This document shows, piece after piece, positions 8,934-64,000 of a DNA stretch of 64,000 bases. The DNA comes from Planctomycetota bacterium (GTDB lineage: Bacteria; Planctomycetota; GCA-002687715; CAIWVZ01): positions 128,001 through 192,000 of the forward strand of contig JBGANV010000007.1 of NCBI GenBank assembly GCA_044222185.1, written 5' to 3'. Both the position numbers and the translations under genes were made by a program. Every line of letters starts with the position of its first letter. Position 1 is the stretch's first letter. A model generated the notes under the pieces. The model had not been told where the DNA came from, did not search any database, and worked only from the letters and a program-made list of their open reading frames with translations.

Positions 8934-9038
8934 GCGGTGCGCAAGCCGCGGGGCTTCCGCCGTGCCGTCCTCGCCCCGTGCGCTGACCGTGACGGGGCGG
9001 TGCCGTCGTTCGACGCAGGATCTCGCCGGGAGCAGGCC

Positions 9039-12263: not shown

Positions 12264-13052
12264 TCACTTGGAAGGCTTGGAGTCGGTCGCAGGGCGGGAG
12301 TCTGCCGCGGGACGGGAGGCGGGCTTCGCCACCGGCGCATCCTCGCCCTCGTCGTCATCCTCGTCGCCGCCGGCCGAAGTCTTGATCTGGATCATCACGC
12401 CAGGGAACTCCTTGGCGATGATCTTCTTCACCTCGGATATCGAGGAGCCTTCGGAGAGGAGTTCCGACACGCGGGCGCTGATCTTCTGAGGATCGACATG
12501 GCCCGGGTTCGGGCGGTCGTCATCATCCCCGGACGGCTCGTGCGCGGGCTTCGCCGCCGGGGCCTTGGACGTCTCGTGGGACTGGAGCTTCTCGACGATC
12601 GCTTTCAGCTTCTCGATCTCGGCCTTGGCCTCGGCGAGCTGCTCCTTCGTGGGCTTTCCCTCGAAGATCCTCGTCAAGCGCGCGAGGCACGCCTTCGGGT
12701 CGCCGTCCTCTCGGGGCGGGAAGGTCACCTTCAGCGGGACTTCCTTGCCGTCACGCAGGACGGTGACGTCCACCGTCGAGCCGAACTTCAACTGGTCGAG
12801 AACCCCGACGAGATCCCCGTCGGTCCCGACCTTCTTCCCGTTGACGGCGACGAGGACGTCCCCGGCCTTGATCCCCGCCTTCTCGGCCGGGCTACCCGCG
12901 CGCACGCCGTCGACGCGGAGGCCTTCGTCCGAATCCAACGCGACGGTGACGCCGAGACGTGGCCGGTCGGCGTCGTCCTGCGCGACGGCGATCAGCGACG
13001 AGGAGCAGAGGACCAGGGCCGTCAGGAGACACGCGGGCAGTTTCATGTTCAT
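12264..13052 (-). CDS. Secreted PDZ domain protein with low-complexity C-terminus
   Basis: Signal peptide; RLGVTV...GSPAEKAGIKAGDVLVAVNGK PDZ signature. Confidence 0.85.
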   Translation of the reverse strand: MNMKLPACLLTALVLCSSSLIAVAQDDADRPRLGVTVALDSDEGLRVDGVRAGSPAEKAGIKAGDVLVAVNGKKVGTDGDLVGVLDQLKFGSTVDVTVLRDGKEVPLKVTFPPREDGDPKACLARLTRIFEGKPTKEQLAEAKAEIEKLKAIVEKLQSHETSKAPAAKPAHEPSGDDDDRPNPGHVDPQKISARVSELLSEGSSISEVKKIIAKEFPGVMIQIKTSAGGDEDDDEGEDAPVAKPASRPAADSRPATDSKPSK

Positions 13053-49055: not shown

Positions 49056-50506
49056 CGCGGGTGGCCGCATGCCGCGCCTTCATCGCGCTCGTCTTGACCT
49101 CGCTCCTGGCCGCGGCTCAGGATTCCAAGCCAGCGAAGGGGGAGCGCGTCCGCCTGGACGATGGCCGCGAGCTTGCCGGGCCGATCGCCGCGAATGACGG
49201 TCTCACGATCCGGGTTGGTGACGCCGTCGTCGACAAGTGGCAGGTGCGCGAGATCGAAGGCGGACCGACGCCCGTTCAGGCCGAGATCCTCCTCCAGCGT
49301 TTCCTCGACGAGCCGGACGAGGGACGCGCCATGCGGTTGTCGAGTCGGATCCTCGCGCTGCGAGACCTCGACTTCAGTACGCTCGTCGACCTGATGCGGC
49401 GAACGGGGATCCGGCCCCCGGTCGACCCGGGCCTCAGCACTCACAAACTCCTCGTGAAGGAAACCAAGGAGACGTTCGAGGTCACGCGGTACGTGCCCAG
49501 AGGCTTCGATGCCACGTCGGCCCGCCCCGTCTGGGTCACGATCCATGGGACCGGCGGACACGCGACGGACCCCGTTTCCATGATGCAGTCGCTCGCCGAC
49601 CGGTGGGGGTTTGCCGTCGCCGGGCTCACCGAGATTCCGCCGCGACAGGGGAAGGGCTGGGGCTCGCTTCCCGCGGAACGCATCTGCGAAGCGGCGCTCG
49701 TCCACGAACTCGTCCGGCAGCTGCGAGTCGACACGAACCGTGTCTACATCAACGGGTGGTCTCGCGGTGGACACGCCACCTGGGACATGGCGATGCACCA
49801 TCCCGATCTGTTCGCGGGCGCCGGGCCAGTGATCGGGTCCGTGCTGTCGCGCGATCGACACCTCCTGCCGAACGTGCGTCCCGTGCGCATCGACGCCACG
49901 AACGGTGCGAAAGACCAGCCTGGACTCGAGCGGGCCGCGAAGGCGGTCGCCGACGCGTTGTCCGCACCCGGATACGACTTCCGCTGGTACGAGGACCCGA
50001 ACGGCGGGCACGATCCGTTCCCGGAGCGGCTGCCGATCGTCGTCGAGCACCTCCTCGAGAAGGTTCGTGAACCCGATCCGAGGAAGGTCGAGTTCACCAG
50101 CTACGACGAGGAGGCGCGGCGCTGCTTCTGGCTGAAGATCGAGGCCGTCTCGGCGGATTCCTACGTGCGCGGCCGCAGCATTCCCGTTCTCGGAGCATCC
50201 AAGATGACGCCCGAGGAGGCGCACGCCGCGCTCGAGTCGGCGATCGCCCGCAACACCCCGCGCATCAGCGGCGAGGTCGACGGCGAGAATCGCGTGTCGA
50301 TCACGACGCACCTCGTCACGCGGTTGAAGGTCGGGCTGTCGCCCAAGCTCATCGACTTCCGCAAGCCCGTGACGTTGATCGTGAATGGCGACAAGCGCTG
50401 GACGAAGACGATCTCACCGTCGAAGGCCGTGCTGCTCGAGACCGCGCGCCGTAATCAGGATCGATTCTTCGGTTGGGGCGAAGTCCTCGACGTGGCCGTG
50501 CGTTGA
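49052..50506 (+). CDS. Secreted alpha/beta hydrolase (esterase/peptidase-like)
   Basis: Signal peptide; IHGTGG, VDTNRVYINGWSRGG (GxSxG), GAKD, GGH. Confidence 0.82.
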   Translation: MTRVAACRAFIALVLTSLLAAAQDSKPAKGERVRLDDGRELAGPIAANDGLTIRVGDAVVDKWQVREIEGGPTPVQAEILLQRFLDEPDEGRAMRLSSRILALRDLDFSTLVDLMRRTGIRPPVDPGLSTHKLLVKETKETFEVTRYVPRGFDATSARPVWVTIHGTGGHATDPVSMMQSLADRWGFAVAGLTEIPPRQGKGWGSLPAERICEAALVHELVRQLRVDTNRVYINGWSRGGHATWDMAMHHPDLFAGAGPVIGSVLSRDRHLLPNVRPVRIDATNGAKDQPGLERAAKAVADALSAPGYDFRWYEDPNGGHDPFPERLPIVVEHLLEKVREPDPRKVEFTSYDEEARRCFWLKIEAVSADSYVRGRSIPVLGASKMTPEEAHAALESAIARNTPRISGEVDGENRVSITTHLVTRLKVGLSPKLIDFRKPVTLIVNGDKRWTKTISPSKAVLLETARRNQDRFFGWGEVLDVAVR

Positions 50507-50564
50507 GGGGGCGGCGGCGAGATGCCGCAGGACCAGCCATGGCTGCTACATTGCCGCCTCAACC

Positions 50565-51632
50565 ATGGACACGGCATCGCACGCTGAACCGACGCTCACG
50601 TTGCGGGAAACACGCGACCGACTGAAGGACCTCTTCACCCCGCGGGCGCTCGTGTACTGGACCGACCTTCTCGCGTCGGCGACGGTCGGGTGGGGCGGCT
50701 TCGCCGTCGCGATGCAGCAGGCTCCGTGGAGCGCCGCGCACGTCGTCGCCACCGTCGTCAGCGCGCTTGCGCTCTATCGCTCCGCCATGTTCATCCACGA
50801 GCTGACGCACCTTCCGAAGGGTTCGCTGCCGGGGTTCCACACGGTGTGGGACCTGCTCGTCGGCGTGCCGCTTCTCCTTCCGTCGTTCATGTATCTCGGC
50901 GTGCACCTCGATCATCACCGTCGCAACGTCTACGGCACGGCCGGCGATCCCGAGTATCTGCCGCTGGCCCGCAGCTCGCGTGTGAAGACGGTGTTGTTCC
51001 TCGTGCAGCCTGTGGTGATCCCGCTTCTGCTGCTCGCGCGGTTCGCCGTGCTCGCGCCGCTGTCGGTGTTGCTCGGGTCCAAGGTGCGCGAGCTCATCGT
51101 CACGCGGGCTTCGGCACTCGTGATCAACCCGGCCTACCGGCGGGATCTCCCGACGGGTGCTCTGCGGGGACGCTGGGTCGTGACGGAGCTGTTGGCGTCG
51201 GCGCTCGTGCTCGGACTTCTCGGCGCGATCGTCGCGGGGCTCGTGAGCTGGCGCGTGGCAGGCCAGTGGTATCTCGTGTCCGTCCTGGCGGCTTTCGTCA
51301 ACCAGCTTCGCACCGTGGGCGCTCATCGCTGGCGGAATGCGGGCGGAGAACTGGACGTCATCGCCCAACTCGTCGATTCGGTCAACACGCCAGGCGGCGC
51401 ATTGACGGAGATCTGGGCGCCTGTCGGGTTGCGCTGGCACGGGCTCCACCACTTCGTTCCCGACATGCCCTATCACTCGCTCGGCGCGGCGCACCGCCGT
51501 CTCGTCTCGAGCCTTCCTTCCGATTCGCCGTACTTTCAGACGGTATCACCCGGCATCTTCGCGAGCCTCGCCACGTTGTGGCGAGAGGCGGGCGAGGCCG
51601 GTGGTCGCGCCGTCGCGGAGCCGGGGCGCTGA
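50565..51632 (+). CDS. Membrane fatty acid desaturase family protein
   Basis: His boxes HELTH, HLDHH, HGLHH; PYHSL; TM helices. Confidence 0.9.
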   Translation: MDTASHAEPTLTLRETRDRLKDLFTPRALVYWTDLLASATVGWGGFAVAMQQAPWSAAHVVATVVSALALYRSAMFIHELTHLPKGSLPGFHTVWDLLVGVPLLLPSFMYLGVHLDHHRRNVYGTAGDPEYLPLARSSRVKTVLFLVQPVVIPLLLLARFAVLAPLSVLLGSKVRELIVTRASALVINPAYRRDLPTGALRGRWVVTELLASALVLGLLGAIVAGLVSWRVAGQWYLVSVLAAFVNQLRTVGAHRWRNAGGELDVIAQLVDSVNTPGGALTEIWAPVGLRWHGLHHFVPDMPYHSLGAAHRRLVSSLPSDSPYFQTVSPGIFASLATLWREAGEAGGRAVAEPGR

Positions 51633-52459
51633 TGGCGGACGCGCTCAGTCGGTTGCTGCTCCGAAGCGTTCCGCCGTTCGACCTGCGCGATCTCGGCTCC
51701 GCGTCGCGACTGCTCGTGCCGAACGGCGCGGCGTTCGGAACCCCGCAACTCTGGCGCGGCGATGTGGCCTGGGATTGGGTGCGTCAGAAGCCTGATCACT
51801 ACTGGCTGAAGGGTGATCGCGGCAGCGCGCACTCGGGCGTCGACTTCGGGTTCTTCATCCGGCGCGGGCACGTCTACCCGCTCCCCGTCGGCTTGCCGGT
51901 GCGCGCGCCCGTTCGCGCGATCGTCGAGAACACGGGTCGCGATGCGGATCCAGAACGCGGCCCCGGCGGCGTCGTCCTCGGACTCGGGGACGAAGACGCG
52001 CCGCGCTTCTACGTTCACCTGACCGATTTCTGCGCCACGGTGCCTCACGGTGCTCACGTGCGTCCTGGCCAGATCCTCGGCCACACCGTTCCCTACTCGC
52101 GGCGCTTCCCCGTCGTCGTGATGCACATGGGGGTCGGCATCCTCCAGCCCGACGAACCACCCAATCCCATCGACCCTTCACCGCTCCTCCGCCGCTGGCG
52201 CGTCCGTCATCCGGTGACGCCCGGATCCACGTGCGATGCCTCGACGTTGAACCGGACGAGGTCCGGCACCTGGATGGCGCCCGGGAAGATCGCCGACCTC
52301 ACCGCCTGCGCCACGTGGGATGTTGGTCAATCGGGAGCGCGTCACGTTCAGGGCCTGGGCGTGTACCGACGCGCCCGCCAGGCCGGGCACGTAGGGGATT
52401 GGAAAGGCGATCGTGCTCGATCCCGGGTTTGCCGATCCGCTCGCACCGAGCACGCCTAA
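51632..52459 (+). CDS. M23 peptidase-like protein with a chimeric C-terminus
   Basis: HSGVDF, GLPVRAP, YVHL, VRPGQILG, MHMGV, PIDP; TGATG-coupled to desaturase; after ..ATWD it reads into an antisense FG-GAP-gene fragment. Confidence 0.75.
   Translation: MADALSRLLLRSVPPFDLRDLGSASRLLVPNGAAFGTPQLWRGDVAWDWVRQKPDHYWLKGDRGSAHSGVDFGFFIRRGHVYPLPVGLPVRAPVRAIVENTGRDADPERGPGGVVLGLGDEDAPRFYVHLTDFCATVPHGAHVRPGQILGHTVPYSRRFPVVVMHMGVGILQPDEPPNPIDPSPLLRRWRVRHPVTPGSTCDASTLNRTRSGTWMAPGKIADLTACATWDVGQSGARHVQGLGVYRRARQAGHVGDWKGDRARSRVCRSARTEHA
52134..52322 (+). repeat. Repeat copy R1 (3' part of the M23-like gene)
   Basis: Aligns ungapped with 56646-56834 (13 mismatches by manual count); 52182-52321 identical to 61089-61228. 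Confidence 0.95.
52322..52456 (-). pseudogene. 3' fragment of a paralog of the FG-GAP gene at 61206-63755
   Basis: GVLGASGSANPGSSTIAFPIPYVPGLAGASVHAQALNVTRSRLTN vs GVLGASGSANPGASTITFPVPYVPGIAGIFVHAQ; 52355-52456 vs 61230-61331, 18 mismatches in 102 nt by manual count. Confidence 0.85.
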
Positions 52460-52505
52460 GGCACACCCGCCCTTGTGTATTCCGTATGCGGCTTGAGGTC
52501 TAGAA

Positions 52506-54617
52506 TCACGGCGGGGCCGCGGTCTCGTCAGCCGGTCCGCCCTGCCAGTCGGCGGCGATCTCCGACCAGTCGATATCCCGCTCGACTGGCTGTCCCTTGT
52601 CATCCCTGCCAACCCAGACTTCCCAGAAGTCCGGATCGTCGGAGCGCGGCTGTTGCGACTTGGGCAGGTCGTTCATCTTTACCAGAACCGGCAGTTCCGA
52701 TGCCCACCCGAGCAGAATGGCGCTCTGGGAGGGCAGCGAGGGTAGCTCGCGAAGAAGCCCGCGAAGATTGTCCGGGACAAGCCGGTGGACGAGTTCCTGA
52801 TCGCGGTCGTTGCTGATCCGGTGAAGCAAGAAGGTGTTGCATTGCGAAAGCACCGTAGGTGAAAGCTCGGACGGGCGCTGAGACGAAAGCACCAGTCCAA
52901 GCCCGAACTTTCGCCCTTCACGAGCGATGCGCTCAAAGACCTGGCAGCAGATGCCTGCGGCGTCCTGATTCTCGACATCCTCCTTGTAGCGCTTGATGAA
53001 CGTGTGTGCCTCCTCCATCACGAGCACCGTGGGCAGCGCAGCGCCATTCGATTTCAAGTAGCGCTGCAGGGCCTCGAATACGATGCGAGCGATGACAGCG
53101 GCGACGACATGGACAATTTCGGTCGGAACAAGTGAGAGGTCTATTATCGATATGCAATCGTGCTCGGCGCCATCCACTCCGATGTAGTTGTTGAGCCACT
53201 TATGGAGCGTGACGTCCCCCGTATCCGCGATTATCGCGCTCATCTTCGGGTCAGATAGAAAGGCTCGAATGCGAGCAACCAGGAAATCGAGGAACGGGCT
53301 GACGTTCTCTTGCTCTGCGAGAACCTCAAGGTGATCAGCGAGGTCGGTGCCGATGAACGCCAGTGGAACGTCGTCGTCGGGGCCTTGTTGGTACACAATC
53401 CCACCCAGCGTAGTCAGGACGGCGTCAATCGCCACGTCGATCCTCTGGATCTCGTCGTTCGTGAATGCCACGAAATAGACGAAGCTCAGTTGTTTCTGCT
53501 TGTCGAAACCATCCTTGCGCTTGGCGTTGAGCGCGCTTCGGATTGCGCCTGCGACGTGGTCGAGCGAGCAATTGGGGCACTCCGACTTCCACCGATCCAG
53601 GTCCGAGACCACAGCCTCTAACTGGAAGCCGAACTTTGTCGGCTCCGCCTTTACAGCGTTCGAACGCAAGTCTCGCCGGATCGAAATCAGTGTGGACGAT
53701 AGATATCGGCGAAGGGCGAGCTTCTTCTCCTGGTCTGTGGGATCGGCAGCTGCAGTCCTCCCGGCTTTGACCTCGCGCAACGCCCGCCGAAGTAGCGGTC
53801 GTTGCGTTCTCGCACTCGCCTGCGTGAAGGAGCACCACTCCGCGCTGTTCCAGAACCACAGCGGCACCTTCAGTGCCTGTTCACCCTCGGCGGGGCTCAC
53901 CTTGAATATCCGTGCTTTGATCGGGTCGTCGCTGCTAAAGGCGCGTGAGTATTCGCCGTTAGGGTCCAGCACGACGAACCGAGCGTTGGGTCGCCCTCCT
54001 GGCCGTGCCCTTGCTGCCTGTTCGAGGCTCCAGCGGATCAGCCCGGCCACGGAGCATGACTTTCCGCTGCCAGTGTTCCCCAAAACGGCGAGGTGGCGCC
54101 CGAACAATCGGTTGGGGTCGACGGTGACCTCCGCATCGCCGGCGAGCGGGCTCGTGCCGATTTTGACCCTGCGTCGGTCGCCCGACTCAACGATCGATCG
54201 GAGCTGATTCGCTGTAGGTAGGACCACCGCAGCGCCGACCGATGGCAATGCAACGGCGCCTCTCTTGAAGGCATAATTCCCCCCTGGAGCGAGCCGGAGA
54301 AGCGTACCGAGCGGGTTGATCCGCAGTCGGCGGAGCGGATACGGCAGATCGACTAATCCGAAATCCTGCACCCCTCGTCGCTTCGGGAATGGCGATCGTT
54401 CGACAGTGAGCCACTCGACCTGCCCCACCAGGAAGGCTTCGTCCACCGCGACTAGGAGGTAACCGTTGACCCTGGGGAACGGTCGCGGTCCACCGGCAAT
54501 TAGGGCAACGGAGTCAGGCGCCTCAATGTCGAGGGTGACCTTGATCTCGTCCGGGGAGACGAAATCCACGGCGCCGATGCGCAGGCTGCCCGCTTGCTCG
54601 AATGGGGACTCGCTCAC
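52506..54617 (-). CDS. herA: HerA/DUF87 family ATPase of a SIR2-HerA defence pair
   Basis: HAS-barrel-like N-terminus, GRHLAVLGNTGSGKS (Walker A), LVMEEAH (Walker B), REGRKFG, SQRPSEL; GTG start overlaps SIR2 stop. Confidence 0.92.
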   Translation of the reverse strand: MSESPFEQAGSLRIGAVDFVSPDEIKVTLDIEAPDSVALIAGGPRPFPRVNGYLLVAVDEAFLVGQVEWLTVERSPFPKRRGVQDFGLVDLPYPLRRLRINPLGTLLRLAPGGNYAFKRGAVALPSVGAAVVLPTANQLRSIVESGDRRRVKIGTSPLAGDAEVTVDPNRLFGRHLAVLGNTGSGKSCSVAGLIRWSLEQAARARPGGRPNARFVVLDPNGEYSRAFSSDDPIKARIFKVSPAEGEQALKVPLWFWNSAEWCSFTQASARTQRPLLRRALREVKAGRTAAADPTDQEKKLALRRYLSSTLISIRRDLRSNAVKAEPTKFGFQLEAVVSDLDRWKSECPNCSLDHVAGAIRSALNAKRKDGFDKQKQLSFVYFVAFTNDEIQRIDVAIDAVLTTLGGIVYQQGPDDDVPLAFIGTDLADHLEVLAEQENVSPFLDFLVARIRAFLSDPKMSAIIADTGDVTLHKWLNNYIGVDGAEHDCISIIDLSLVPTEIVHVVAAVIARIVFEALQRYLKSNGAALPTVLVMEEAHTFIKRYKEDVENQDAAGICCQVFERIAREGRKFGLGLVLSSQRPSELSPTVLSQCNTFLLHRISNDRDQELVHRLVPDNLRGLLRELPSLPSQSAILLGWASELPVLVKMNDLPKSQQPRSDDPDFWEVWVGRDDKGQPVERDIDWSEIAADWQGGPADETAAPP

Positions 54618-56047
54618 GATGTCGTGCCCGCCTGATCCGCCGGGAGAGAATCGGCGTTGCCGGCATCATTCGGCGCGGTGCCCCAGCGCGCCTTGAGCAG
54701 CTCCGCCATGCGCACGGTCGTCCGGTCGATCGCAGGCTTCGGCAAGTACTGGTCGACGAGGGTGCATAGATCGCCGAGGTGGTCTCCAATCAAGAGCGTG
54801 ATTTGTGCTTGTCGGCCCAGGCGCTCGTACGTGCGCACGATGCGTCCAAGAGGATCGCCATGCGAAATGACGACCAGGTGCGTGGACGGGATCGTCAGCA
54901 TGTCCTCGATCACTCGGTTGATGTGCTCGTCGCCGAAGCTGTAGCCGTAGCAGACGGCTGTGCTGTTCGGTCGGCAGATCGAGGCCGCGAAGTCCCGGAA
55001 CAATTCAACGTAGGGGTAAGCGGTCGTTTCGCGGTCCTTGGCGGCGTTGGGATAGATCATCAGGTGCGTCGCATCGACGCCACTCAGACCCGGAGCAGCC
55101 AGATAGGGTGCTGCGTCCCTGGCGCCAAATGGCAGGCCAATCCGCCGGATCGCCCCATCACAGTCCAGCCAATCGACAGATCCGTGGAGCTTGGTGAATC
55201 GCGCGACGCCTTCGAGGTAGCGCGGCTCTCCACGGATGCCGGGGGGATTGTAGTGGAGGTCAACATCCAAGCGCGACGCACGGAATACCGGTGCCAACGT
55301 GCCGACGAAGCGGTCAATGAGGCGCAGCCCCGCCGCATCAGCGCCCGCCTCGATGAGGCGGTCGTAGTTGGTTGTGAAGAGCTGTAAGCGCTCGCGTGTA
55401 CCAGTACGGCTGGCGAAGCTCATCAGGAAGCTGACGACGTAGTTGAACGCTTTCTCGCGTCTGTCAACGTTTGCTGTCGCGATGTCGTGTTCACCTCGCA
55501 AGATGGAGCTGGCGAACGTTTGAAGGACCTTATTCAGGCTCTCTCGCAATGCATCAACCCGCTTGCGCTCCGATGGTCGATCCGGCGTCGACGCTGCAAG
55601 GATCTCGAGGCCGCGAAGCAGTTCGTTGGCCACTCGGATCTGATCCTCGAGGTTTCCGGCCCTGCGCCCACTCCTCTCAGCCGTGCGCTTTGCCTCTTGT
55701 TTGATCTCGTCGGTCAGAACCGCGAACGGGACGGTCTCCAATCCGGGCAACGCCGCATTCCTCGCTATTTGGTGAACGGCGTGCGTCAGTCCCGAACCGA
55801 CGAGTAAGGAGAGGTTCTCGGACTGGACCAGGGCCGTCAGCCATGGCTCGATCCGAGGGCGCAACTTCTCGGGGCCGAAGGCCTCTGCAGGCTTGGCCCA
55901 AGAACACGTCGCGTCGACGGTCAATCGAAACGTGGCGGTTCCTGGCGCCGCTGATTCACGATTCAGAAGGACAGGAGCGTGGTCGTCGCGCGCCTTAAGT
56001 ATTTGCCCACCGGCATCCAGGTGCTTCCTCTGAAGTTCGACGGTCAT
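54614..56047 (-). CDS. SIR2-like (SIR2_2) NADase effector
   Basis: LLVGSGL, FTTNYDRLIE, KLHGSVDW, YGYSFGDEHIN motifs. Confidence 0.9.
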   Translation of the reverse strand: MTVELQRKHLDAGGQILKARDDHAPVLLNRESAAPGTATFRLTVDATCSWAKPAEAFGPEKLRPRIEPWLTALVQSENLSLLVGSGLTHAVHQIARNAALPGLETVPFAVLTDEIKQEAKRTAERSGRRAGNLEDQIRVANELLRGLEILAASTPDRPSERKRVDALRESLNKVLQTFASSILRGEHDIATANVDRREKAFNYVVSFLMSFASRTGTRERLQLFTTNYDRLIEAGADAAGLRLIDRFVGTLAPVFRASRLDVDLHYNPPGIRGEPRYLEGVARFTKLHGSVDWLDCDGAIRRIGLPFGARDAAPYLAAPGLSGVDATHLMIYPNAAKDRETTAYPYVELFRDFAASICRPNSTAVCYGYSFGDEHINRVIEDMLTIPSTHLVVISHGDPLGRIVRTYERLGRQAQITLLIGDHLGDLCTLVDQYLPKPAIDRTTVRMAELLKARWGTAPNDAGNADSLPADQAGTTS

Positions 56048-56155
56048 TGCTTCTCTCCGCCGATGACGCCCGTGGGCGAACCCGCAGTCTTCTTCGCGGT
56101 CGCGAGGAGGTTGGCGACCCGCTCGGCTTCGTTGGCATTCATTTCTTCGACCGCT
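56044..56155 (-). pseudogene. C-terminal remnant of a gene translationally coupled to SIR2
   Basis: Open frame AVEEMNANEAERVANLLATAKKTAGSPTGVIGGEKQ* whose TGA overlaps the SIR2 ATG (ATGA); upstream it abuts the IS end. Confidence 0.5.
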
Positions 56156-56645
56156 GGGACAGACCGATCGCTCGTGGAATTCGGCGGCTCGGGTGGCTGC
56201 TGATCAGACTATGCGACCGCCTCCATTTTGTCGAGGTTCCGAACAGGTTCGACCAGTGCCGGCATGTACTCGTGGCAGATGACGCGACGGAGCCTCGCCC
56301 TGGCGTGGGGGCGGATCGCGGTGGCTCCCCTCATCGCCATCTTGGCACTCGACCACCGCATCACACTCCGGCACAGGTCGCGCGTCCCGGCGAAGATGCT
56401 CTCGATCGCGTGCGTGCTCAGGAGGACGTGGCGGAGTTCATCGGCAACCTGGAGCCGGTGATTCGCGACCGATAATTCGAGGCACTCCTTGAGGCTTCCA
56501 GGCGCGCCGGGGCTCATGTCGTTGAGCTTCGACGCGCGCTGCGCGAGCGCCTTCCCGGCGGCGCCGCACGGCTTCATGCCCGAGGCGGCACGGAGGGCCC
56601 GGCGGATCGTTCCCTGGTCGTTCTCGAGACGGCGCGAGCGTGCGT
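56156..56645 (-). mobile_element. IS256-family transposase remnant (C-terminal part plus probable element end)
   Basis: SPGAPGSLKECLE...LRHVLLSTHAIESIF...CRSVMRW...LRRVICHEYMPAL resembles the IS256 transposase C-terminus; stop at 56209 followed by terminus-like GCCGCCGAATTCCACGAGCGATCGGTCTGTCCC; 5' part missing at R2. Confidence 0.78.
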
Positions 56646-56860
56646 TCGGCATTCTCCAACCCGACGAACCGCCCAATCCCATCGACCCGTCACCGCTCTT
56701 GCGTCGCTGGCGCGTGCGCCATCCGGTGACGCCCGGATCCACGTGCGATGCCTCGACGTTGAATCGGACGAGGTCCGGCACCTGGATGGCGCCCGGGAAG
56801 ATCGCTGACCTCACCGCATGTGCCACGTGGGATGCGCGGTGGGTCGACGTCTTCGACTGA
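56646..56860 (+). repeat. Repeat copy R2: synonymously diverged M23 3' end with probable native C-terminus (..ATWDARWVDVFD*)
   Basis: 62 codons identical in amino acid to R1 with 12 synonymous codon changes; in-frame TGA at 56858-56860. Confidence 0.93.
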
Positions 56861-57074
56861 CGGTGGGCCCGCTCTCGCGCGGATCTCCTCGATTGACGCA
56901 GCGGCGGGGGGCGATGCGACGGGGACGGCTGGTGAGCAGGCGGCGAGCGGCGCGTGCACGGATGGGGCACCGACCCACCAGCGGGCGCGCCCTTCGACGC
57001 AACGCTCGCCGGAGCGTGCGGTCGCAACCCCCTTGACCGATCCGACGAGGCCCGCGCAGCACCGCACAGCAGAT

Positions 57075-57118
57075 CCTCGCTCGGCTACCTGCCCGGGAGG
57101 CTCGTGGCTGGAGCGAGG
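57075..57118. terminator. Long imperfect hairpin downstream of the 1001-aa gene
   Basis: CCTCGCTC-GGCTAC ... GTGGCT-G-GAGCGAGG. Confidence 0.4.
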
Positions 57119-57165
57119 GCCGGCTCGGTCGCGGCGAGGCGTCGCGAGCGCGCCGGGGGTGCCGC

Positions 57166-60100
57166 TCAAAGCACGAGGAAGAGGACCTCTTGTGGCTGAA
57201 GTGTCGTGTTTTGAAGCGCCCCGTACGTGGTCGCGACGCCGTTCGAGATGGCGTTGCGGTACACCGTGACGGCCGTCCCTGGCGCGATCGTGACGCCACC
57301 AATCTGTGTCGGCAGCGTCACCGCGACCGATTGGTTGCTGTTCCAGGCATTTGCGACGAGGAGTCCCGTGGATGTCGAGAGCTTCCACGCCGAATGCCAC
57401 GCGACGGGGACCGTGACCAAGAATGGCGGCCCACCTACCTCCTTGTAGGTGGCACTTGTCACGCACGAGAACCCGTTAGTCGTCTGCATGACGCCGTCAT
57501 TCAGGAAGTTCCGCGCGGGTCCCTGTCCGGTCCGCACACAGTTGATGAGAAACGCCAGGGGTACGGGATCCGAGCGCTGCGGCGTCGGGAGCATCGCCAG
57601 GGTTGTGACGCCGAGCGCGCACGCTCCACCCTGGCCGCCCTGCGATGTCGGAGCGAGGTACTCCGCAGCGAGCATCCATTCGATGAGACCGTATGCCTCC
57701 CACGCCCCCGACGTGAGCGTCTTCGCCAACGCGACGAGCCAGCTCTGCACCTGGCGATCGCGCTCTGATTGGCCCATGCCGGGATATGTCGTCGGCACTC
57801 TGATGTCCCAGACCATGGAGCGCACGATTTCGGAGTACACGAACTGAAAGGCCGGCACGACCTCGCTCCCCGGAACTCCCGGCGCCGGCCACCCGCTGAC
57901 GGCGCTGGACCTGATCCCCTGGACGGCGACGGTTCCGATCGACAGCTCGCACGGGTCCTCGATGGCCATCTCGAAGTTCGGGTTGCCGGCCTTTCCTGCC
58001 GCCAGCGTCGAGTTGAACAGGTTCTTGAGCGCGTCGGCTTTCCAACGACCGTTGCCGATCGGATGCCCCGAGGTCGGATCGAAGTTGTCGTAGACCGTCC
58101 CGCCATTCATCTGATCGAACAGGTAGAGATCGACCGCCGATGCCTGGTTGTTGTCCGCTGCCATGCGGGCCGCCGCCTCCTGGTGACGCGCGACGGTGAA
58201 CGGCTTGGACGGGTCCATCAGGTAGTGGTTGGAGGTCCACGGGATGAGATCGAGGTCCTGATCCCGATGGAAGTAGTTCCCGAACCGGTCTACGCAGGCG
58301 ATGCCCTGCCACGGAGGCGGATCGCTGGTCACGCCTGCATACCCTGGAACCCAGAAGTCGTAGTTTCCTGGTGGGCAGCCCGGAGTGATTTCGGTTCGGG
58401 TCACGGCCCAGTTCAGACCGGCGATCATGGCTGCCGCGCGGTTGCCCGTTCCGTGGAGTCCGCTCCAGCACGACAGGATCGCCTGCTCGGAGTGGATCGC
58501 GGGGTAAGGACCGCCGGGCGAGCTCGGCGTGCCAATCACGTTCAGCGGCACGTAGTACGGGCCGATGTACGTCCCGTTCTTCTCGAACCCCCGGAACATC
58601 CCCATCATTTCGCCGTTCACCCCGCCCGGGGAGGCGAGTGCCTGTTGCCAGGCGGACAGTACCGTCGCCCACGATTCAATGGGCGCAATCTCGCCTCCGA
58701 AGCCCCGCGGCTGGAGGTCCGCCTCGAATATGGTCGGACGGGTCCGCGTCCAGGCGGCCGGCGTCCGGGCCGCCGCAGCGCTCCACCACGGCTGTTGCCG
58801 TGCCCACGATCGGTACGTCTCTGCGGCGGCCATCCAGCTCCCGACGCAGGGGTGAATGACCGTCTTGTACGCCGGAACGGCGACGTTCGCCTCGCTGGGA
58901 ACGTTCTGCGAGATGCTCAACCGCACGACCTGGTTCGCGGCGTCCCAGTTCGTCGCGACTGTTTTCGCCTCACCAAACGGGTCGTGGGCCGCGATTCCCA
59001 GCCCGCGAACGCCATCGTAGACCGCAGCGAACTGCATGGCTGCCAGGCCTGGGTATTCGACCGTGCCTTCCCAGTCCCCGTAGGGATGGCCCGCGTCGAT
59101 GTTCCTGGGGTTCACGACGTACCCCCCGCCCCGCGGGTTGAAGATGCGGAGTTCGCGCGCCGCGTCGGAGAGCGGCGCGTTGACCTGGAGATCCGGGCAA
59201 GTGATCCGTTCGAGGATCACGGCCGGCGATGGCGTCACCGACGGTTTGAAAGCGATCTCCGTGTTCGATGGCCCCGGAACCGTCGGTTCGGAGGAGATTT
59301 CCACCATCATCCCGAGCGTGGGCGGCAGTCCAGACTTGGCGGTTGCTCGGATTCCCTCCACGGTGCCCTCGACGAAAGGCGTCACGTCGAAGGCTGCGCC
59401 GTCGCTGGTCGAGGACGAAGGGTTTTGGTCGCTCACCGCGTTGCGGCGCGAGAGTGTGTAGAGGGGCGACCCACCGGCCTTGAGCAGGTTCTCGCCGACG
59501 GGGGTCCTGTTTCCATCGACGTTGCGAACTTCCATGAGCCGGCCGCGGGACGCATCGAACATCACGGAGAGCGCCGTGCTCTTGACCTCGTAGCAGATGG
59601 GCGTCTCGAGGGTGCCGAATTCGGCGTCCGTTCCCGTGAAGTCCACGTTGTCGACATAGAGCCGGACGCCGGGCGCGTTGGCGCATTCGACGAGCAGTCG
59701 CACCCTCTCGGCCTCCGGGCCGACGGTGTAGGACACGGTGAATTCCTGCCAGTTTTCCGCGCGTGGGACCTGAGTCGACGTCGAACCGCTGGCGATGCTC
59801 CAGGTGGGTTTGAACCCCGCCGCATGGAGAGTCACGACGGCGTTCGGCGATGCCGCCTGCGGCAGGTAGAGGATGCGGACCTTCGCCCGAAGGGTTTTGT
59901 TCATCATCGCCGCCGTCACCTTCCACTCCTTGGCCAAGTGGTAAAGCGTGTTTCCCGCGGCGACGTCGATGCGACACGACGTGCTTCCACAGTTGACGAG
60001 GCCTGCCGCCGGCTCCGGCTCGACCATGTCGGATGGCCAGTTCACCGTCCAGTTCTCGGGGACCATGCTCGACCCTTGCTGGTACCAGCGCTCGAAGTTC

Positions 60101-60171
60101 GAGTTGAGGAGATTCTGCGCATTGAGGCTGCCGAGGACGGCGAGGAGAACGACTGCGCATCGGCGTTTCAT
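57166..60171 (-). CDS. Secreted 1001-aa protein: CBM-like N-domain plus probable glycoside-hydrolase-like (DUF6259-like) barrel
   Basis: Signal peptide; NLLNSNFE...LYVDNVDF; YPGLAAMQFAAVY, AHDPFGEAK, SWMAAAETYRSWA, YLFDQMNGG, IEDPCE, VPAFQFVYSE. Confidence 0.8.
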   Translation of the reverse strand: MKRRCAVVLLAVLGSLNAQNLLNSNFERWYQQGSSMVPENWTVNWPSDMVEPEPAAGLVNCGSTSCRIDVAAGNTLYHLAKEWKVTAAMMNKTLRAKVRILYLPQAASPNAVVTLHAAGFKPTWSIASGSTSTQVPRAENWQEFTVSYTVGPEAERVRLLVECANAPGVRLYVDNVDFTGTDAEFGTLETPICYEVKSTALSVMFDASRGRLMEVRNVDGNRTPVGENLLKAGGSPLYTLSRRNAVSDQNPSSSTSDGAAFDVTPFVEGTVEGIRATAKSGLPPTLGMMVEISSEPTVPGPSNTEIAFKPSVTPSPAVILERITCPDLQVNAPLSDAARELRIFNPRGGGYVVNPRNIDAGHPYGDWEGTVEYPGLAAMQFAAVYDGVRGLGIAAHDPFGEAKTVATNWDAANQVVRLSISQNVPSEANVAVPAYKTVIHPCVGSWMAAAETYRSWARQQPWWSAAAARTPAAWTRTRPTIFEADLQPRGFGGEIAPIESWATVLSAWQQALASPGGVNGEMMGMFRGFEKNGTYIGPYYVPLNVIGTPSSPGGPYPAIHSEQAILSCWSGLHGTGNRAAAMIAGLNWAVTRTEITPGCPPGNYDFWVPGYAGVTSDPPPWQGIACVDRFGNYFHRDQDLDLIPWTSNHYLMDPSKPFTVARHQEAAARMAADNNQASAVDLYLFDQMNGGTVYDNFDPTSGHPIGNGRWKADALKNLFNSTLAAGKAGNPNFEMAIEDPCELSIGTVAVQGIRSSAVSGWPAPGVPGSEVVPAFQFVYSEIVRSMVWDIRVPTTYPGMGQSERDRQVQSWLVALAKTLTSGAWEAYGLIEWMLAAEYLAPTSQGGQGGACALGVTTLAMLPTPQRSDPVPLAFLINCVRTGQGPARNFLNDGVMQTTNGFSCVTSATYKEVGGPPFLVTVPVAWHSAWKLSTSTGLLVANAWNSNQSVAVTLPTQIGGVTIAPGTAVTVYRNAISNGVATTYGALQNTTLQPQEVLFLVL

Positions 60172-60366
60172 GGTGGTCCTTCCCGTGGCTCTTGTGGCGG
60201 GTCGACCATGAAGAGTCCATTTCGACGCGCGATGTCACGCGCGCACTCGAAAATTCGAGCGCACGGGCACTCACGGTCGCTTCTCGCGGCGGCAAGAGGA
60301 GAGGCGGCCGACCGCGGGGCGTCGCCGGCGGCGGGGCTCGCACACCGCCCGCTCGCCAGCGAGCCG

Positions 60367-61088
60367 TCAGGGTCTCAGGGTCGCCCGATAGAGATTCGTG
60401 GTACTTCCCACAGCCGGGTTCGACGTGGACACCGTGAGTGTCTGGATCCCTGCGGCGAATCCGAGGAGCCCCGGGTTCTGCGGGATCGTGATGGGGAGCG
60501 CCGTGCCGGTTGGCAGCGTCGCCACGCGATGGGCGAGAGCCCGACGAGCGCCACGCCGAAGTTCCCGATCGGGATCGAGCCGTCGAGGGCGCCGATCACG
60601 TAGACGGACATCCCCGGCACACCGTTGATGACGTCGAACGTCAGCGTCGCGCCGAGACGCGGTGCGCCCGTCACGCTCATGAACCAGATCGGCCGCTCGA
60701 ACGCACCCATCTCGGCGGAAGCGGTTCCGCTCAACGTGGAATCGATGATGCGAGGCTACTCGTCCCAATCCTTCGCGACGAGCGTCGCGAGCGACGCATC
60801 CGCTGTCCCGATGCACGGCGACGTCGCCGCGAGGTGAAGGTGACCCAGCGACGCCGCAATGACCTGTGGATCGACGTCGATGTTTCCGCGGAAGCCCGGA
60901 TACGCGCCATCGGAGTTGAAGACGCGGATGCCAGGAACGGCACCCAGGTTGGTCACGTTGCCCCACAGGATCGAGTTGCGGATCGAGCCCGACCAGCCCG
61001 TGCCCGACAGCCCGACGTGGCACCCCGTGACGGTCGCGTGAACGATGTCGAAGCTGCCACTGGTGAGCCGGATGCCGTCCCTGGCGCA
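60367..61088 (-). pseudogene. Truncated beta-helix/choice-of-anchor-Q-like secreted protein gene
   Basis: IRNSILWGN, GNIDVDP, HLAATSPCIGTA, DWDE*PRIID...EMGAFE; in-frame TAG at 60756-60758, frameshift near 60530, 5' end cut at R3. Confidence 0.82.
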
Positions 61089-61228
61089 CGCTCCTCCGCC
61101 GCTGGCGCGTCCGTCATCCGGTGACGCCCGGATCCACGTGCGATGCCTCGACGTTGAACCGGACGAGGTCCGGCACCTGGATGGCGCCCGGGAAGATCGC
61201 CGACCTCACCGCCTGCGCCACGTGGGAT
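61089..61228 (+). repeat. Repeat copy R3 (140 bp, identical to 52182-52321)
   Basis: Direct comparison CGCTCCTCCGCC...GCCACGTGGGAT. Confidence 0.95.
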
Positions 61229-63755
61229 CCTGCGCGTGAACGAAGATGCCCGCGATTCCCGGCACGTAGGGAACCGGGAACGTGATCGTGCTCGCTCCCG
61301 GGTTTGCCGATCCGCTCGCACCGAGCACGCCCGAGCCGGCGAGCGCCGCGGTCGTCGGATCGATGAACACGGTGCCGAACGGTGGGGCCTGGATCTGGGC
61401 CGCCCCGAGGGAGAAGTAGAGGTTCCACTGGTCGCCCGGCGCGCCGAGCACGTCGAGTTTGAGTGACCCTCCCGGCCTGGGGAACGTGTTGACCGCCAGC
61501 TGCCGCGTGCAGTTCGTGATGAACATCGGGCCTGGCGAGATGATGTCGATGTCCTGGTCTCGATCGAAGTCGGCGAAGGCCGAGTATTCGGTCCAGCCGA
61601 TGCTGTAAGGCGACGCCGACATGGGAGCACCGGCCGTGAAGGTGCCGGCCCCGTTGTTGATGAAGATCGTCGCGCCGTCGAGGATCAGATCCAGGTCGCC
61701 GTCGTTGTCGAGGTCGCAGAGCTGCGGGGTCTGGCCCTGGTAGAGCTGGCCGATCGGCAAGGGCGGGCCGGGCGTGAATTGGCCCGCTCCGTTCCCGAAA
61801 TACACGACGGCATCGACGATCACGTCTGCGAGCCCGTCGCCGTTCAAGTCACCTGCGACGGCCGTGTAGCCCGTGATCGGCGTCGCCACCGCATTGAACG
61901 TCGCCGGACCCGTCCGGAGGTACACGTAGCTCTGCGCCGGGAAGTTGACCGGAGCGACGGCGAGAAACGAGTTGAGCTGCCAGATGTCCATGAGGCCGTC
62001 GCCGTTCACGTCGGTGATACACAGCGCTGTGGTGTTCCCTGGGGGGCCGAGCCGTTGTGGGACGCCGAAACCAGCCGAGCCGTTGTTCAGCATGATCTCC
62101 GTCGAGAACGAGCGCAGATTCGGAAACGCGATTGGCGACGCGATGATGTCCACGTCTCCATCCCCATCGACGTCGGTGGTCGCGACCAACGCACGACCCA
62201 GCGCCGCGGGGTTGATGACGGTGGAGGTGAAGGACGTTCCATTGTTGATCATGAGCACGTCTGGCCCCGTGAGCCATGGGAACGTCGGCTGGTAGGGAAC
62301 GAGTACGTCCGAGTCTCCGTCGCCGTCTGCGTCGAAGACGCCGACGCTGATGAAGCTCATCTGAATTGGCTGGGGAAGGGCGATACTCGGACCGGGAGTG
62401 AAGTAGCCGTCACCGTCGTTGCGACCGGTGACGAGTAGCTGGGGCGCGATGAAACGGAGTCCGAACAAATCCGGAATTCCGTCTTGATCGACGTTTCCGA
62501 CGAACACGTTCGTCAAGTCTCCCAGCCCACCGAGCGGCTGCGGGAACGGTGCTATCTGGCCCGTTCCGGAATTGAACAGCACCGCGGGGGTGTAGTCGGG
62601 CGCAAGGGCACATACGACGTCCTTGTCGCCGTCACCGTCGACGTCGGACTTGAACGCCCGCGGTGCCCCGCTCAGGAGGCTCGCGCTGAGGAAGCCCGTG
62701 AGCACTTGGGCTACGGCTGCGAAATTCCCGTTGGGCAGCATCGGATGCACTTCGATGCTCGGAGTGACGTAGCGGTCGCCGAAGACGAGGATGTCATCTC
62801 GCTGGTCCGAGTTGACATCGAGAGCGACGATGTGTTCCGCAGGGCCCAGCTCGATCGATGGGCCATACACAGGGCTGGTCAACGGCCCGTAGATCAACGT
62901 GGCCGGGCCTCCCGCCTGGGACCAGGAATTCACGCGCTCCGCGATGATGAGGTCGGGAAACACGTCGTTATTGAAATTGCCCAGGGTCGCGGACCAGATG
63001 GGCGCAGCCCCTGTCCCAGGGATGGGAGTCAGCGAGAACGAACCCGCCGTGTTGATCGCGATCACTGCCGCAGTGCCGCCTTGGACGTCGCGGGGCGAGA
63101 ATAGGATGTCGAGGTCGCCGTCGTTGTCGAGATCGCTGAGCGCGATCCGGCCCGTGGGGAGTCCCGTTTGCGGCAGCCCGGTCGGGCTCGCGACGAACGT
63201 CGTTGGCCCGACGTTCAGCCAGACGGCGCCTCGCCCCGGCACCGGGCCGACGGCTGGGAGGTATTGCTCCGTCGTCATCACCAGGTCTGGGCGGCCGTCA
63301 CCGTTGACGTCGCCGGCGGCCAACGTCACTGCCCCGGCTCCGAAGCTGGGGTAGAGCGCCGGCAACGGCGGGGTGGTCGCCGATGTCGTGTCGTAGGCGA
63401 ACCCGGGCGACGCATACGCGACGACGACTCCGTTGCCGAGTTGCGGAATCGCGGCGAGATCCATGAGCCCGTCGCCGTTGAAGTCGGCAGCAACCACCGA
63501 TTTGGGTCGTAGGAACGGTGGCGCGATGCAGGGACGCCTGAAATGCCCCGTGCCGTCTCCGAGGAGGATCTCCGTTTCCGTCACGAGGTCGATCGTTCCG
63601 TTGCCGTCGAGGTCCGCCGCGCAATAGACCCCCTCCGCGATGGCCGGCATCGGCCGCTCCACGATGCGGTAGATCGGCGCCTGTCCCATGCCCATCGCCG
63701 TCGCCAGCGATCCCACCCCCCACACGATCCCTGCGAACCAGTTTCGAGTCGCCAT
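61206..63755 (-). CDS. Secreted FG-GAP/VCBS repeat protein, 3'-truncated by R3
   Basis: More than ten DxxGDGxxD-type repeats (ADLDGNGTIDL, ADFNGDGLMDL, GDVNGDGRPDL, SDLDNDGDLDI...); GGAGG RBS; terminal DPTWRRR* is encoded by the antisense strand of R3. Confidence 0.92.
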   Translation of the reverse strand: MATRNWFAGIVWGVGSLATAMGMGQAPIYRIVERPMPAIAEGVYCAADLDGNGTIDLVTETEILLGDGTGHFRRPCIAPPFLRPKSVVAADFNGDGLMDLAAIPQLGNGVVVAYASPGFAYDTTSATTPPLPALYPSFGAGAVTLAAGDVNGDGRPDLVMTTEQYLPAVGPVPGRGAVWLNVGPTTFVASPTGLPQTGLPTGRIALSDLDNDGDLDILFSPRDVQGGTAAVIAINTAGSFSLTPIPGTGAAPIWSATLGNFNNDVFPDLIIAERVNSWSQAGGPATLIYGPLTSPVYGPSIELGPAEHIVALDVNSDQRDDILVFGDRYVTPSIEVHPMLPNGNFAAVAQVLTGFLSASLLSGAPRAFKSDVDGDGDKDVVCALAPDYTPAVLFNSGTGQIAPFPQPLGGLGDLTNVFVGNVDQDGIPDLFGLRFIAPQLLVTGRNDGDGYFTPGPSIALPQPIQMSFISVGVFDADGDGDSDVLVPYQPTFPWLTGPDVLMINNGTSFTSTVINPAALGRALVATTDVDGDGDVDIIASPIAFPNLRSFSTEIMLNNGSAGFGVPQRLGPPGNTTALCITDVNGDGLMDIWQLNSFLAVAPVNFPAQSYVYLRTGPATFNAVATPITGYTAVAGDLNGDGLADVIVDAVVYFGNGAGQFTPGPPLPIGQLYQGQTPQLCDLDNDGDLDLILDGATIFINNGAGTFTAGAPMSASPYSIGWTEYSAFADFDRDQDIDIISPGPMFITNCTRQLAVNTFPRPGGSLKLDVLGAPGDQWNLYFSLGAAQIQAPPFGTVFIDPTTAALAGSGVLGASGSANPGASTITFPVPYVPGIAGIFVHAQDPTWRRR

Positions 63756-64000
63756 GTGCCCTCCGTCGTTCTCGTCGCGAAACCCTCCGAGCGATCGAGC
63801 CTTCATCGAATCGAGGAATGCCAGCGCGGTGCCCGCGCGTGCGCTCGCATCCCATCGGGCCGCAGCTCCGAGTTGAAGGCGCCCGCGAGGCAGGCGTCGT
63901 TCGTCGTGAGTACGCGTGAGGACTGCGCGACGTTCAGGCCGAATTGCCGAGCAAATTCGCACTCTCGATCGTGCGACTCTGCGCGCGCTGCTCGCGATGT

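Follow-up and report, generated by a model that had tools for sequence, protein, structure and literature searches.

We analysed a 64,000-nt window of DNA from a Planctomycetota bacterium (64 kb of the 307-kb contig JBGANV010000007.1, assembly GCA_044222185.1; all positions below are positions in this window), in which the tail of an M23-like gene, i.e., its last ~140-215 nt, is present three times in direct orientation. The three copies, here called R1, R2, and R3, are each followed by different genes: R1 by a fragment of an FG-GAP gene and the genes for HerA and SIR2, R2 by a spacer and a gene encoding a DUF6259 domain, and R3 by an FG-GAP gene. The array is a real and well-defined feature, and the triplication of the repeat is far beyond chance. 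Tentatively, we read the array as a stack of recombination scars rather than a machine: at least two homology-anchored insertions with illegitimate far joints, of the type termed homology-facilitated illegitimate recombination (HFIR), may each have pushed an older M23 tail downstream. HFIR appears to be the best fit because R2 shows only synonymous divergence, a transposase gene is cut at the left edge of R2, and the array contains no recombinase.

Three Direct Copies of the M23 Tail

A repeat search of the window returned a single three-member direct family at 52134-52322, 56646-56834 (93%), and 61041-61229 (79% in register). The lower value for R3 arises because non-homologous sequence to the left of 61089 was included. 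When the window was compared to itself with blastn, R1 matched R2 (52134-52322 versus 56646-56834) with 93.1% identity over 189 nt (E 3e-76), and R2 matched R3 (56694-56833 versus 61089-61228) with 93.6% identity over 140 nt (E 5e-55). R1 together with its FG-GAP flank matched R3 and its flank (52182-52456 versus 61089-61331) with 81.8% identity over 275 gapped columns (E 5e-80). Comparison in register revealed that positions 52182-52321 of R1 and 61089-61228 of R3 are identical at 140 of 140 nucleotides, with 0 codon differences; the sequence immediately adjoining this 140-nt core on the left is unrelated. R2 is 26 nt longer than the shared repeat and ends at a stop codon (56858-56860). The left edge of R2 is equivalent to position 52134 of the M23-like gene, and that of R3 to position 52182. 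The features of the locus are listed in Table 1.

A preliminary description of this DNA, made from the letters alone, had reported three direct repeats at these places, with R3 beginning at 61089 and the copies starting at different points, and had given the order and strands of the genes between them. The repeat search, the blastn comparison, and the 140/140 register with R1 agree with this for the repeats, and the order and strands of the genes are likewise as described. The 140-bp core, for which that description had envisaged a wider search, is present in only the three copies within the 64 kb, and the self-comparison likewise detected no further copy of the M23 tail elsewhere in the window. 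The repeat had been taken to be the 3' coding end of the M23-like gene, and the reading frame is indeed kept in homologues. This holds to the end of the gene for R2, which has the native stop, but not for R1 and R3, both of which end at '...ATWD', 8 codons before the native stop. Three features of R1 and R3 were absent from the preliminary description: the FG-GAP deletion junction that both have in common, the extension of the duplication into FG-GAP, and the perfect identity over exactly 140 nt. The last of these gives more weight to the possibility of a chimeric assembly, which that description had raised.

Table 1. Features of the array and of the operon that precedes it, in window positions.
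Feature	Position	Strand	Evidence or remark
Fatty-acid desaturase gene	50385-51632	+	Pfam FA_desaturase, E 1.2e-22
Resident M23-like gene	51632-52459	+	Native part 51632-52321; read-through tail 52322-52456, 45 codons, antisense to FG-GAP fragment
R1, continuous with the resident M23-like gene	52134-52322	+	Repeat search, blastn
140-nt core, identical to R3	52182-52321	+	Register comparison
FG-GAP 3' fragment, cut at both ends	52323-52457	-	83% nucleotide identity to 61229-61331
HerA ATPase of SIR2-HerA, full length	52506-54617	-	PADLOC, NCBIfam
SIR2 effector of SIR2-HerA	54614-56047	-	PADLOC, NCBIfam
IS256-family transposase remnant, C-terminal third	56212-56645 (right end approximate)	-	NCBIfam NF033543, tblastn
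R2, orphan M23 3' end with native C-terminus and stop	56646-56860	+	Homologue alignment
305-nt spacer, R2 stop to stop of DUF6259 gene	56861-57165		Six-frame reading
1001-aa protein with DUF6259 domain	57166-60171	-	Pfam DUF6259, E 7.9e-14
Pseudogene, three frames	60370-61088	-	Six-frame reading, C-terminal alignment
R3, orphan M23 3' fragment broken at '...ATWD'	61089-61228	+	blastn, register comparison
FG-GAP repeat protein gene, 849 aa	61206-63755	-	Pfam FG-GAP_3, E 4.5e-67

Breakpoints and Divergence between the Copies

Only R2 has the native C-terminus of the M23-like protein ('ATWDARWVDVFD') followed by the stop at 56858-56860. In both R1 and R3, the Asp codon of 'ATWD' is the last M23 codon; the two break at the same nucleotide within 1 nt and run on into the 3' end of a convergent, 3'-truncated FG-GAP gene. 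The resident M23-like protein is without its last 8 residues and instead carries 45 unrelated ones that are read antisense. Since R2 has the native stop and R1 and R3 have the deletion junction, the copies derive from at least two different states of the locus.

The nearest homologues of the FG-GAP protein (37-43% identity, 857-867 aa) end in '...AQAxDVTxSRLTNRLxxxVxx[FY]'. The FG-GAP fragment beside R1 stops at '...ALNVTRSRLTN', ~9 residues short of the family C-terminus, and everything upstream of the fragment is gone. The FG-GAP gene beside R3 stops at '...VHAQ', ~20 residues short, and continues with 7 residues from antisense R3. The two FG-GAP breakpoints are 32 nt apart, and the extra stretch on the R1 side (52323-52354) encodes ALNVTRSRLTN.

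The copies differ in how they have diverged. Between R1 and R2, there are 13 nucleotide differences in 12 codons, and all 13 are synonymous, as compared to 26% expected by chance (P ~2e-8). In the FG-GAP flank (R1 side versus R3 side, 83% nucleotide identity), 12 codons differ, 6 of them with a change of residue. R2 shows 9-13 differences from R1 and R3. The exclusively synonymous differences between R1 and R2 argue that R2 diverged inside a working gene and not as a decaying local duplicate; R2 thus appears to belong to the M23 gene of another lineage. A tandem duplication in situ followed by decay was considered and rejected: the modules carry different genes, and R1 and R2 differ only synonymously. 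The longest perfect blocks between R1 and R2 are 44 and 41 nt, lengths that, by estimates of the minimum needed, should suffice for RecA-dependent homologous exchange.

The M23-like Gene and Its Pairing with a Desaturase Gene

Together with its homologues, the product of the M23-like gene forms a small family, ~238 aa in length and known from planctomycete metagenome bins (20 matches, the best with 94% identity, the others with 37-66%). The segment '...PNPxDPxPLLRRWxVRHPV...ATW' is conserved in the family, and the proteins end in '...xRWVDVFD' or similar, e.g., '...ATWDxRWVDVFD*'. The repeat of the array corresponds to the family-specific C-terminal ~70 aa, beyond the Pfam Peptidase_M23 domain; this conserved extension is unannotated.

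Assignment to M23 itself is only marginal, judged by the profile scores: against Pfam Peptidase_M23 (PF01551), the window protein scores 18.7 bits, below the cut-off of 28.7, and a 66%-identical homologue scores 30.5 bits. In the alignment, the family keeps the HxxxD motif and has 'V-L/M-H-F/M-G' at the place where M23 peptidases have HxH; it may represent a non-catalytic or atypical branch of M23.

The ATG of the M23-like gene at 51632 overlaps the TGA of the desaturase gene by 1 nt (TGATG), and the desaturase/M23 pair is present in all four of the related planctomycete loci described below. A conserved operon that joins a membrane desaturase to a peptidase-like protein is an unexplained pairing. 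The 849-aa FG-GAP protein has a 100% match in the protein collection, whereas the M23-like protein of the window has none; the source annotation may have called another open reading frame (ORF) across the altered end of the M23-like gene.

Two further readings of the repeats were discarded. The minus frame of the core is also protein-like, and because it has its third-codon positions in common with the plus frame, the G+C content at third codon positions (GC3) cannot decide the strand of the core. The possibility that the 140-nt core is the 3' end of a minus-strand gene was rejected, as the plus-frame peptide is conserved in 12 homologues of the M23 family. A weak resemblance to M23 to the left of 56646 in a MAFFT alignment was treated as chance, this stretch being IS256 transposase on the other strand.

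Genes and Gene Remnants between the Repeats

The HerA and SIR2 genes are adjacent and overlap by 4 nt. HerA matches PADLOC profile PDLC04098 (E 8e-257), with residues 4-692 on profile positions 3-684 of 686, and SIR2 matches PDLC04079 (E 5.6e-155) over profile positions 33-417 of 430. In NCBIfam, the two match HerA_antiphage_2 (E 1e-62) and SIR2_antiphage (E 5e-36), with scores under the curated equivalog cut-offs (212.7 versus 850 and 124.4 versus 500, respectively). From these matches, the pair is predicted to be a complete defence system. Its composition is foreign: relative to a baseline GC3 of 0.856 +/- 0.025, calculated from 24 Pfam-supported neighbouring genes, HerA has a GC3 of 0.729 (z -5.2) and SIR2 of 0.732 (z -5.0). 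The M23, DUF6259 (GC3 0.825), and FG-GAP genes are host-like in GC3 (z -1.2).

Genes cut at the repeat edges were part of the preliminary description. To the left of R2, this is supported: an IS256-family transposase is 5'-truncated at the left edge of R2. The remnant covers positions 229-334 of 338 in NCBIfam profile NF033543 (E 5.8e-4), it matches annotated IS256 transposases on plasmids in a tblastn search (best E 5e-11), and it has no Pfam match. It is not a complete IS256 DDE transposase, only the stated part of the profile being left; terminal inverted repeats were not searched for.

The pseudogene to the left of R3 has at least two frameshifts, its frame is open into R3, and its N-terminal part is gone. 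It had been described as a beta-helix gene, a label that found no support in the libraries: there were no Pfam, NCBIfam, or plasmid tblastn matches, and matches in the PDB were weak and to unrelated proteins (best E 0.015). By alignment, the pseudogene has at its C-terminus a domain of the type seen in the FG-GAP protein. This unannotated domain of ~110 aa (61206-61600 and 60370-60600) is also present in the FG-GAP homologues, where it ends in '...Q-A-x-D-V-T-x-S-R-L-T-N-R-L...', and has no Pfam match. Its role could be to sort or anchor planctomycete proteins that are secreted.

For the 1001-aa protein, no NCBIfam, PADLOC, or PDB-sequence match was found beyond DUF6259. The earlier label 'GH-like' for its gene has no backing other than the Pfam DUF6259 match (E 7.9e-14) and is unverified. 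The spacer between R2 and this gene contains no recognisable gene in a six-frame reading, no Pfam match in any ORF of at least 60 aa, and no similarity to the HEAT-repeat gene that follows M23 in relatives; NCBIfam and plasmid tblastn likewise gave nothing for it, and its PDB matches were no better than those of the pseudogene. Pfam scans of the array detected no toxin or immunity families. In sum, a single defence system, a DUF6259 gene, and two wrecked genes make up the cargo.

The 50 kb upstream of the array are ordinary chromosome, with genes for type II secretion and pili, peptidases, and a fucosidase in the Pfam scan. Two paralogous M28 peptidase genes with C-terminal PDZ domains are located at 8937-10703 and 43852-46800; the latter additionally encodes PD40 beta-propeller repeats and a PA domain. 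The one other repeat returned by the blastn self-comparison of the 64 kb is a 57-nt inverted repeat with 86% identity (12853-12909 and 46599-46655) that is unrelated to the array; its second arm falls within the M28/PD40 peptidase gene, in the part for the C-terminal PDZ region.

Search for Recombination Machinery and Attachment Sites

ORFs scanned with Pfam comprised 42 that were selected by GC3 across the window and all 52 others of at least 60 aa in 52231-61466. No integrase, recombinase, excisionase, or relaxase domain was detected in these ORFs, and the IS256 remnant is the only mobile-element signal among them. The absence of an integrase or recombinase from the window, part of the preliminary description, therefore holds for every ORF that was scanned. 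No tRNA or tmRNA gene was found, and Rfam gave no match at E<=0.1 in 50000-64000.

The palindromes of the core are not above the level of shuffled sequences (4 observed versus a mean of 6.6), and none with arms of 10-12 nt is present. Terminator-like sites were at the shuffle level (6 versus 5.6), and there were 0 promoter-like sites. The signatures of integron or Xer/dif cassettes (IntI with attI/attC, or a dif-like 11-6-11 site) were not found, given no integrase domain and no Rfam match. The repeats of the array consist of 140-215 nt of coding sequence, unlike the sites of integrons or Xer/dif modules.

Comparison to Related Loci

A scan for the locus over 185,579 species genomes gave 80 pattern matches, of which four were confirmed as related loci. 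In these, the M23-like protein has 55-61% amino acid identity to that of the window; all of the relatives are metagenome-assembled genomes (MAGs). FG-GAP, HerA, SIR2, and DUF6259 genes are absent from all four loci, and no array is present in any of them. Downstream of M23, three of the four have a HEAT-repeat gene and one a kinase region; the HEAT-repeat gene is absent from the window. At 55-61% identity, these relatives are too distant to show turnover at the level of strains.

Orphan tails were also sought in protein collections, i.e., among called ORFs only. The R2 ORF as query had no match among proteins of 67-216 aa. The 71-aa tail as query against 1.84 billion representatives had three matches, all to full-length proteins of 238-240 aa.

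One of the related loci, on CAMARR010000011.1, is labelled Candidatus Kuenenia stuttgartiensis. The 20.7-kb stretch has 60.9% G+C, and the genome of that organism is at ~41% G+C; the bin label thus seems doubtful.

A Proposed Stack of Homology-Anchored Insertions

The exclusively synonymous divergence between R1 and R2 points to an M23 3' end that was brought in from, or left over from, another lineage; decay in situ predicts otherwise. An insert end that is homologous to the recipient and from a related donor, as HFIR calls for, is represented by R2, with 93% identity to R1 and perfect blocks of up to 44 nt. Serial accretion of the HFIR type had been put forward in the preliminary description, and as an interpretation it fits best with the repeats, the cut transposase, and the synonymous-only divergence of R2; as a mechanism it is unproven. 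The order of events, the HFIR-type mechanism, and the route of DNA entry are what we infer.

DNA from related planctomycete lineages would have been acquired at least twice in succession, with the desaturase/M23 operon serving each time as the homologous anchor. On each occasion, homologous recombination would have taken place inside or upstream of M23, and the far end would have been joined illegitimately within the 3' region of the resident M23. The M23 end of the newcomer and the genes downstream of it would then lie beside the operon, and the previous M23 tail with its followers would be displaced downstream as an orphan. At the outset (step 0), a small deletion would have fused the resident M23 to the convergent FG-GAP gene, giving what are now R3 and the FG-GAP gene. 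The donor of step 1 would have contributed a native M23 end, the spacer, the DUF6259 gene, and a gene of the family with the FG-GAP-type C-terminus; at the far joint, this last gene would have been cut, with landing at the 52182-equivalent of M23. The donor of step 2 would have carried an M23-FG-GAP fusion in which FG-GAP was already disrupted by SIR2-HerA and IS256; at its far joint, the transposase would have been cut, with landing at the 52134-equivalent, and R2 would have been left behind.

Several points weigh against this sequence of events. None of the intermediate states of the locus that it predicts was found among the four loci from the 185,579 species genomes, and no other orphan M23 tails were detected in the protein collections, where only called ORFs are represented. 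R1 and R3 are identical at 140 of 140 positions, yet the adjoining FG-GAP sequences are only 83% identical; R1 and R3 have the M23 breakpoint in common (within 1 nt), and the FG-GAP breakpoints are 32 nt apart. This mismatch between core and flank requires an extra assumption. One candidate is gene conversion that heterology on either side kept within the 140-nt block; another is a secondary 32-nt deletion that shortened a junk tail on FG-GAP. In addition, HFIR is reported to be rare (PMC5361080; PMC3240628).

Alternative Explanations

The agreement between R1 and R3 would also follow from a Campbell-type single crossover, which we consider possible but unlikely. An 8,907-nt circle with the core, the FG-GAP fragment, HerA, SIR2, the IS256 remnant, R2, the DUF6259 gene, and the pseudogene would have integrated at a resident M23-FG-GAP junction through the 140-nt core. 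Looping out of a sibling genome is one conceivable source of the circle, end joining of a linear fragment another; no integrase is needed, and the inner R2 module would go back to a previous event of this type. A single crossover between circle and chromosome leaves what is observed at R1 and R3, i.e., perfect identity over 140 nt and homology that extends into FG-GAP (275 gapped columns, 82%). Both flanking copies have the same M23 breakpoint, and there is no recombinase gene in the array. However, the circle must already have held two illegitimate joints (transposase/R2 and pseudogene/R3), so that illegitimate events are still needed, and between a sibling circle and chromosome one would not expect the FG-GAP flank to be at 83% next to a core at 100%. 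Sequential displacement and Campbell integration lead to the same end product and are inseparable by sequence alone. The exactness of the 140-nt identity, with unrelated sequence directly on both sides, is also what an assembly artefact could produce, either through mis-threading of the exact repeat or through concatenation of co-existing strain variants. The true molecules would then be a plain M23-FG-GAP chromosome and a separate circular or tandem 8.9-kb element, or strains with one module each. One widely used metagenome assembler has a default largest k of 141, and 140 nt would be about the longest exact repeat that a de Bruijn assembly of that kind could thread. One related MAG contig has a 'k141_' name, and the source itself is probably a MAG, as the relatives all are. 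We regard an artefact as rather improbable: the transposase/R2 and pseudogene/R3 junctions are unique sequences and not inventions of an assembler, R2 differs from R1 and R3 at too many positions to be collapsed with them, and a different threading alters solely the integrated versus free state of the 8.9 kb, leaving the orphan fragments in place. Given the perfect 140-nt repeat, the integrated state of the 8.9 kb as assembled stays conditional on reads.

Site-specific accretion would assign the M23 3' end the role of an att site at which decayed islands integrated in tandem, served by an integrase that is elsewhere or lost, as in cis-mobilizable elements (CIMEs). Islands that target the 3' ends of genes carry a replacement 3' end and leave direct repeats, a 140-nt segment is common to all three copies, and tandem accretion of integrase-less decayed elements that keep their att sites is documented in streptococci (PMC7563491). 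Against this stand the lack of integrase, relaxase, or excisionase domains in the scanned ORFs (64 kb of the 307-kb contig having been inspected) and the palindrome counts in the core (4 versus 6.6 in shuffles), from which no recombinase-type inverted repeat stands out. Moreover, the left edge of R2 cuts a transposase gene where a defined island end would be expected, and a frameshifted pseudogene abuts the left edge of R3. As its attP arm, the element beside R1 would have to include ~275 nt from the M23/FG-GAP deletion junction of the chromosome, which is contrived. This type of accretion is very unlikely in our estimation, and less likely than either sequential displacement or Campbell integration. 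We give similarly little credence to the M23 tail as a recombinase-free attachment site. If it were one, modules bounded by M23 tails (140-189-nt repeats) would loop out by RecA-type recombination as circles of 4.4, 4.5, and 8.9 kb, or may also travel as linear DNA, and would be recaptured by relatives with the desaturase/M23 operon. The locus would then let planctomycete strains exchange defence and surface genes without an integrase, and it would be a readable record of how a core defence hotspot is constructed.

Comparison to Known Systems

The closest parallels to stacked homology-anchored insertions are the orphan arrays of Rhs, contact-dependent inhibition (CDI), and type VI secretion system (T6SS) loci. 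An HFIR-type model was proposed for orphan immunity arrays at T6SS loci of V. cholerae (PMC5361080), and strings of orphaned Rhs 3' regions are attributed to the same model, as cited there. As in those arrays, 5'-truncated copies of a gene's 3' region lie in direct orientation behind the intact gene, with distinct downstream genes after each copy. The model has the newest module beside the intact gene and the older ones distal, without an integrase, and the mechanism proposed is the same as here, an upstream homologous anchor with a downstream illegitimate joint. Unlike in those arrays, the anchor is not a polymorphic toxin gene but a small M23-like gene paired with a desaturase gene, and the repeated part is a conserved tail and not the edge of a variable toxin domain. 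The cargo consists of unrelated genes and not of toxin-tip/immunity pairs; therefore, there is no obvious selective reason for keeping the orphans.

CIMEs are decayed integrative and conjugative elements (ICEs) or integrative and mobilizable elements (IMEs) that keep their att sites (PMC7563491). The array resembles them in its tandem modules, which are separated by directly repeated copies of a single host gene's 3' end, and in that the modules lack recombination genes of their own. It differs in that nothing derived from an ICE or IME was detected, the repeat lengths differ from one another, and no recombinase-type core was detected.

The core defence hotspots (cDHS) of P. aeruginosa (PMC10250203) provide a third comparison: there, as here, a defence system resides at a fixed position beside conserved genes, with no linked mobile-element machinery. 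Transfer through homologous recombination of the conserved flanks is discussed as a possibility for cDHS, and such an exchange would leave no scars (PMC10250203). In contrast, scars are present here in the form of orphan M23 tails; and a hotspot is defined by recurrence across strains, whereas this is a single locus. The words 'hotspot' and 'cassette array for defence and surface genes', used in the preliminary description, are extrapolations from one locus that go beyond the data.

The SIR2-HerA pair resembles the anti-phage system of that name (PMC11514289, PMC11472057, PMC13434337) in its adjacent, overlapping genes and in its full-length matches to defence profiles. This predicted defence system is cargo here and not the array feature itself, and its NCBIfam scores lie under the equivalog cut-offs.

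Implications

Arrays of displaced 3' ends are already known at toxin loci; new here are an anchor gene that is not a toxin and the presence of a defence system among the cargo. The value of the observation is limited, for it comes from one locus with two orphan copies in a metagenome-type assembly. The repeats would have consequences for the stability of the locus: by RecA-type recombination, a crossover of R1 with R2 would bring back the native M23 end at the cost of SIR2-HerA, and one of R1 with R3 would excise the entire 8,907 nt.

Many defence systems reside at fixed chromosomal positions with no mobile-element machinery nearby, and how such positions become filled is presented as an open question in the study of the P. 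aeruginosa hotspots (PMC10250203). The locus described here keeps its scars, orphan tails of the anchor gene that each abut a gene wreck (the cut transposase and the frameshifted pseudogene). It thus provides a concrete and testable account of how accretion may proceed step by step without an integrase, away from the toxin loci at which such arrays are known and in a phylum that has received little study.

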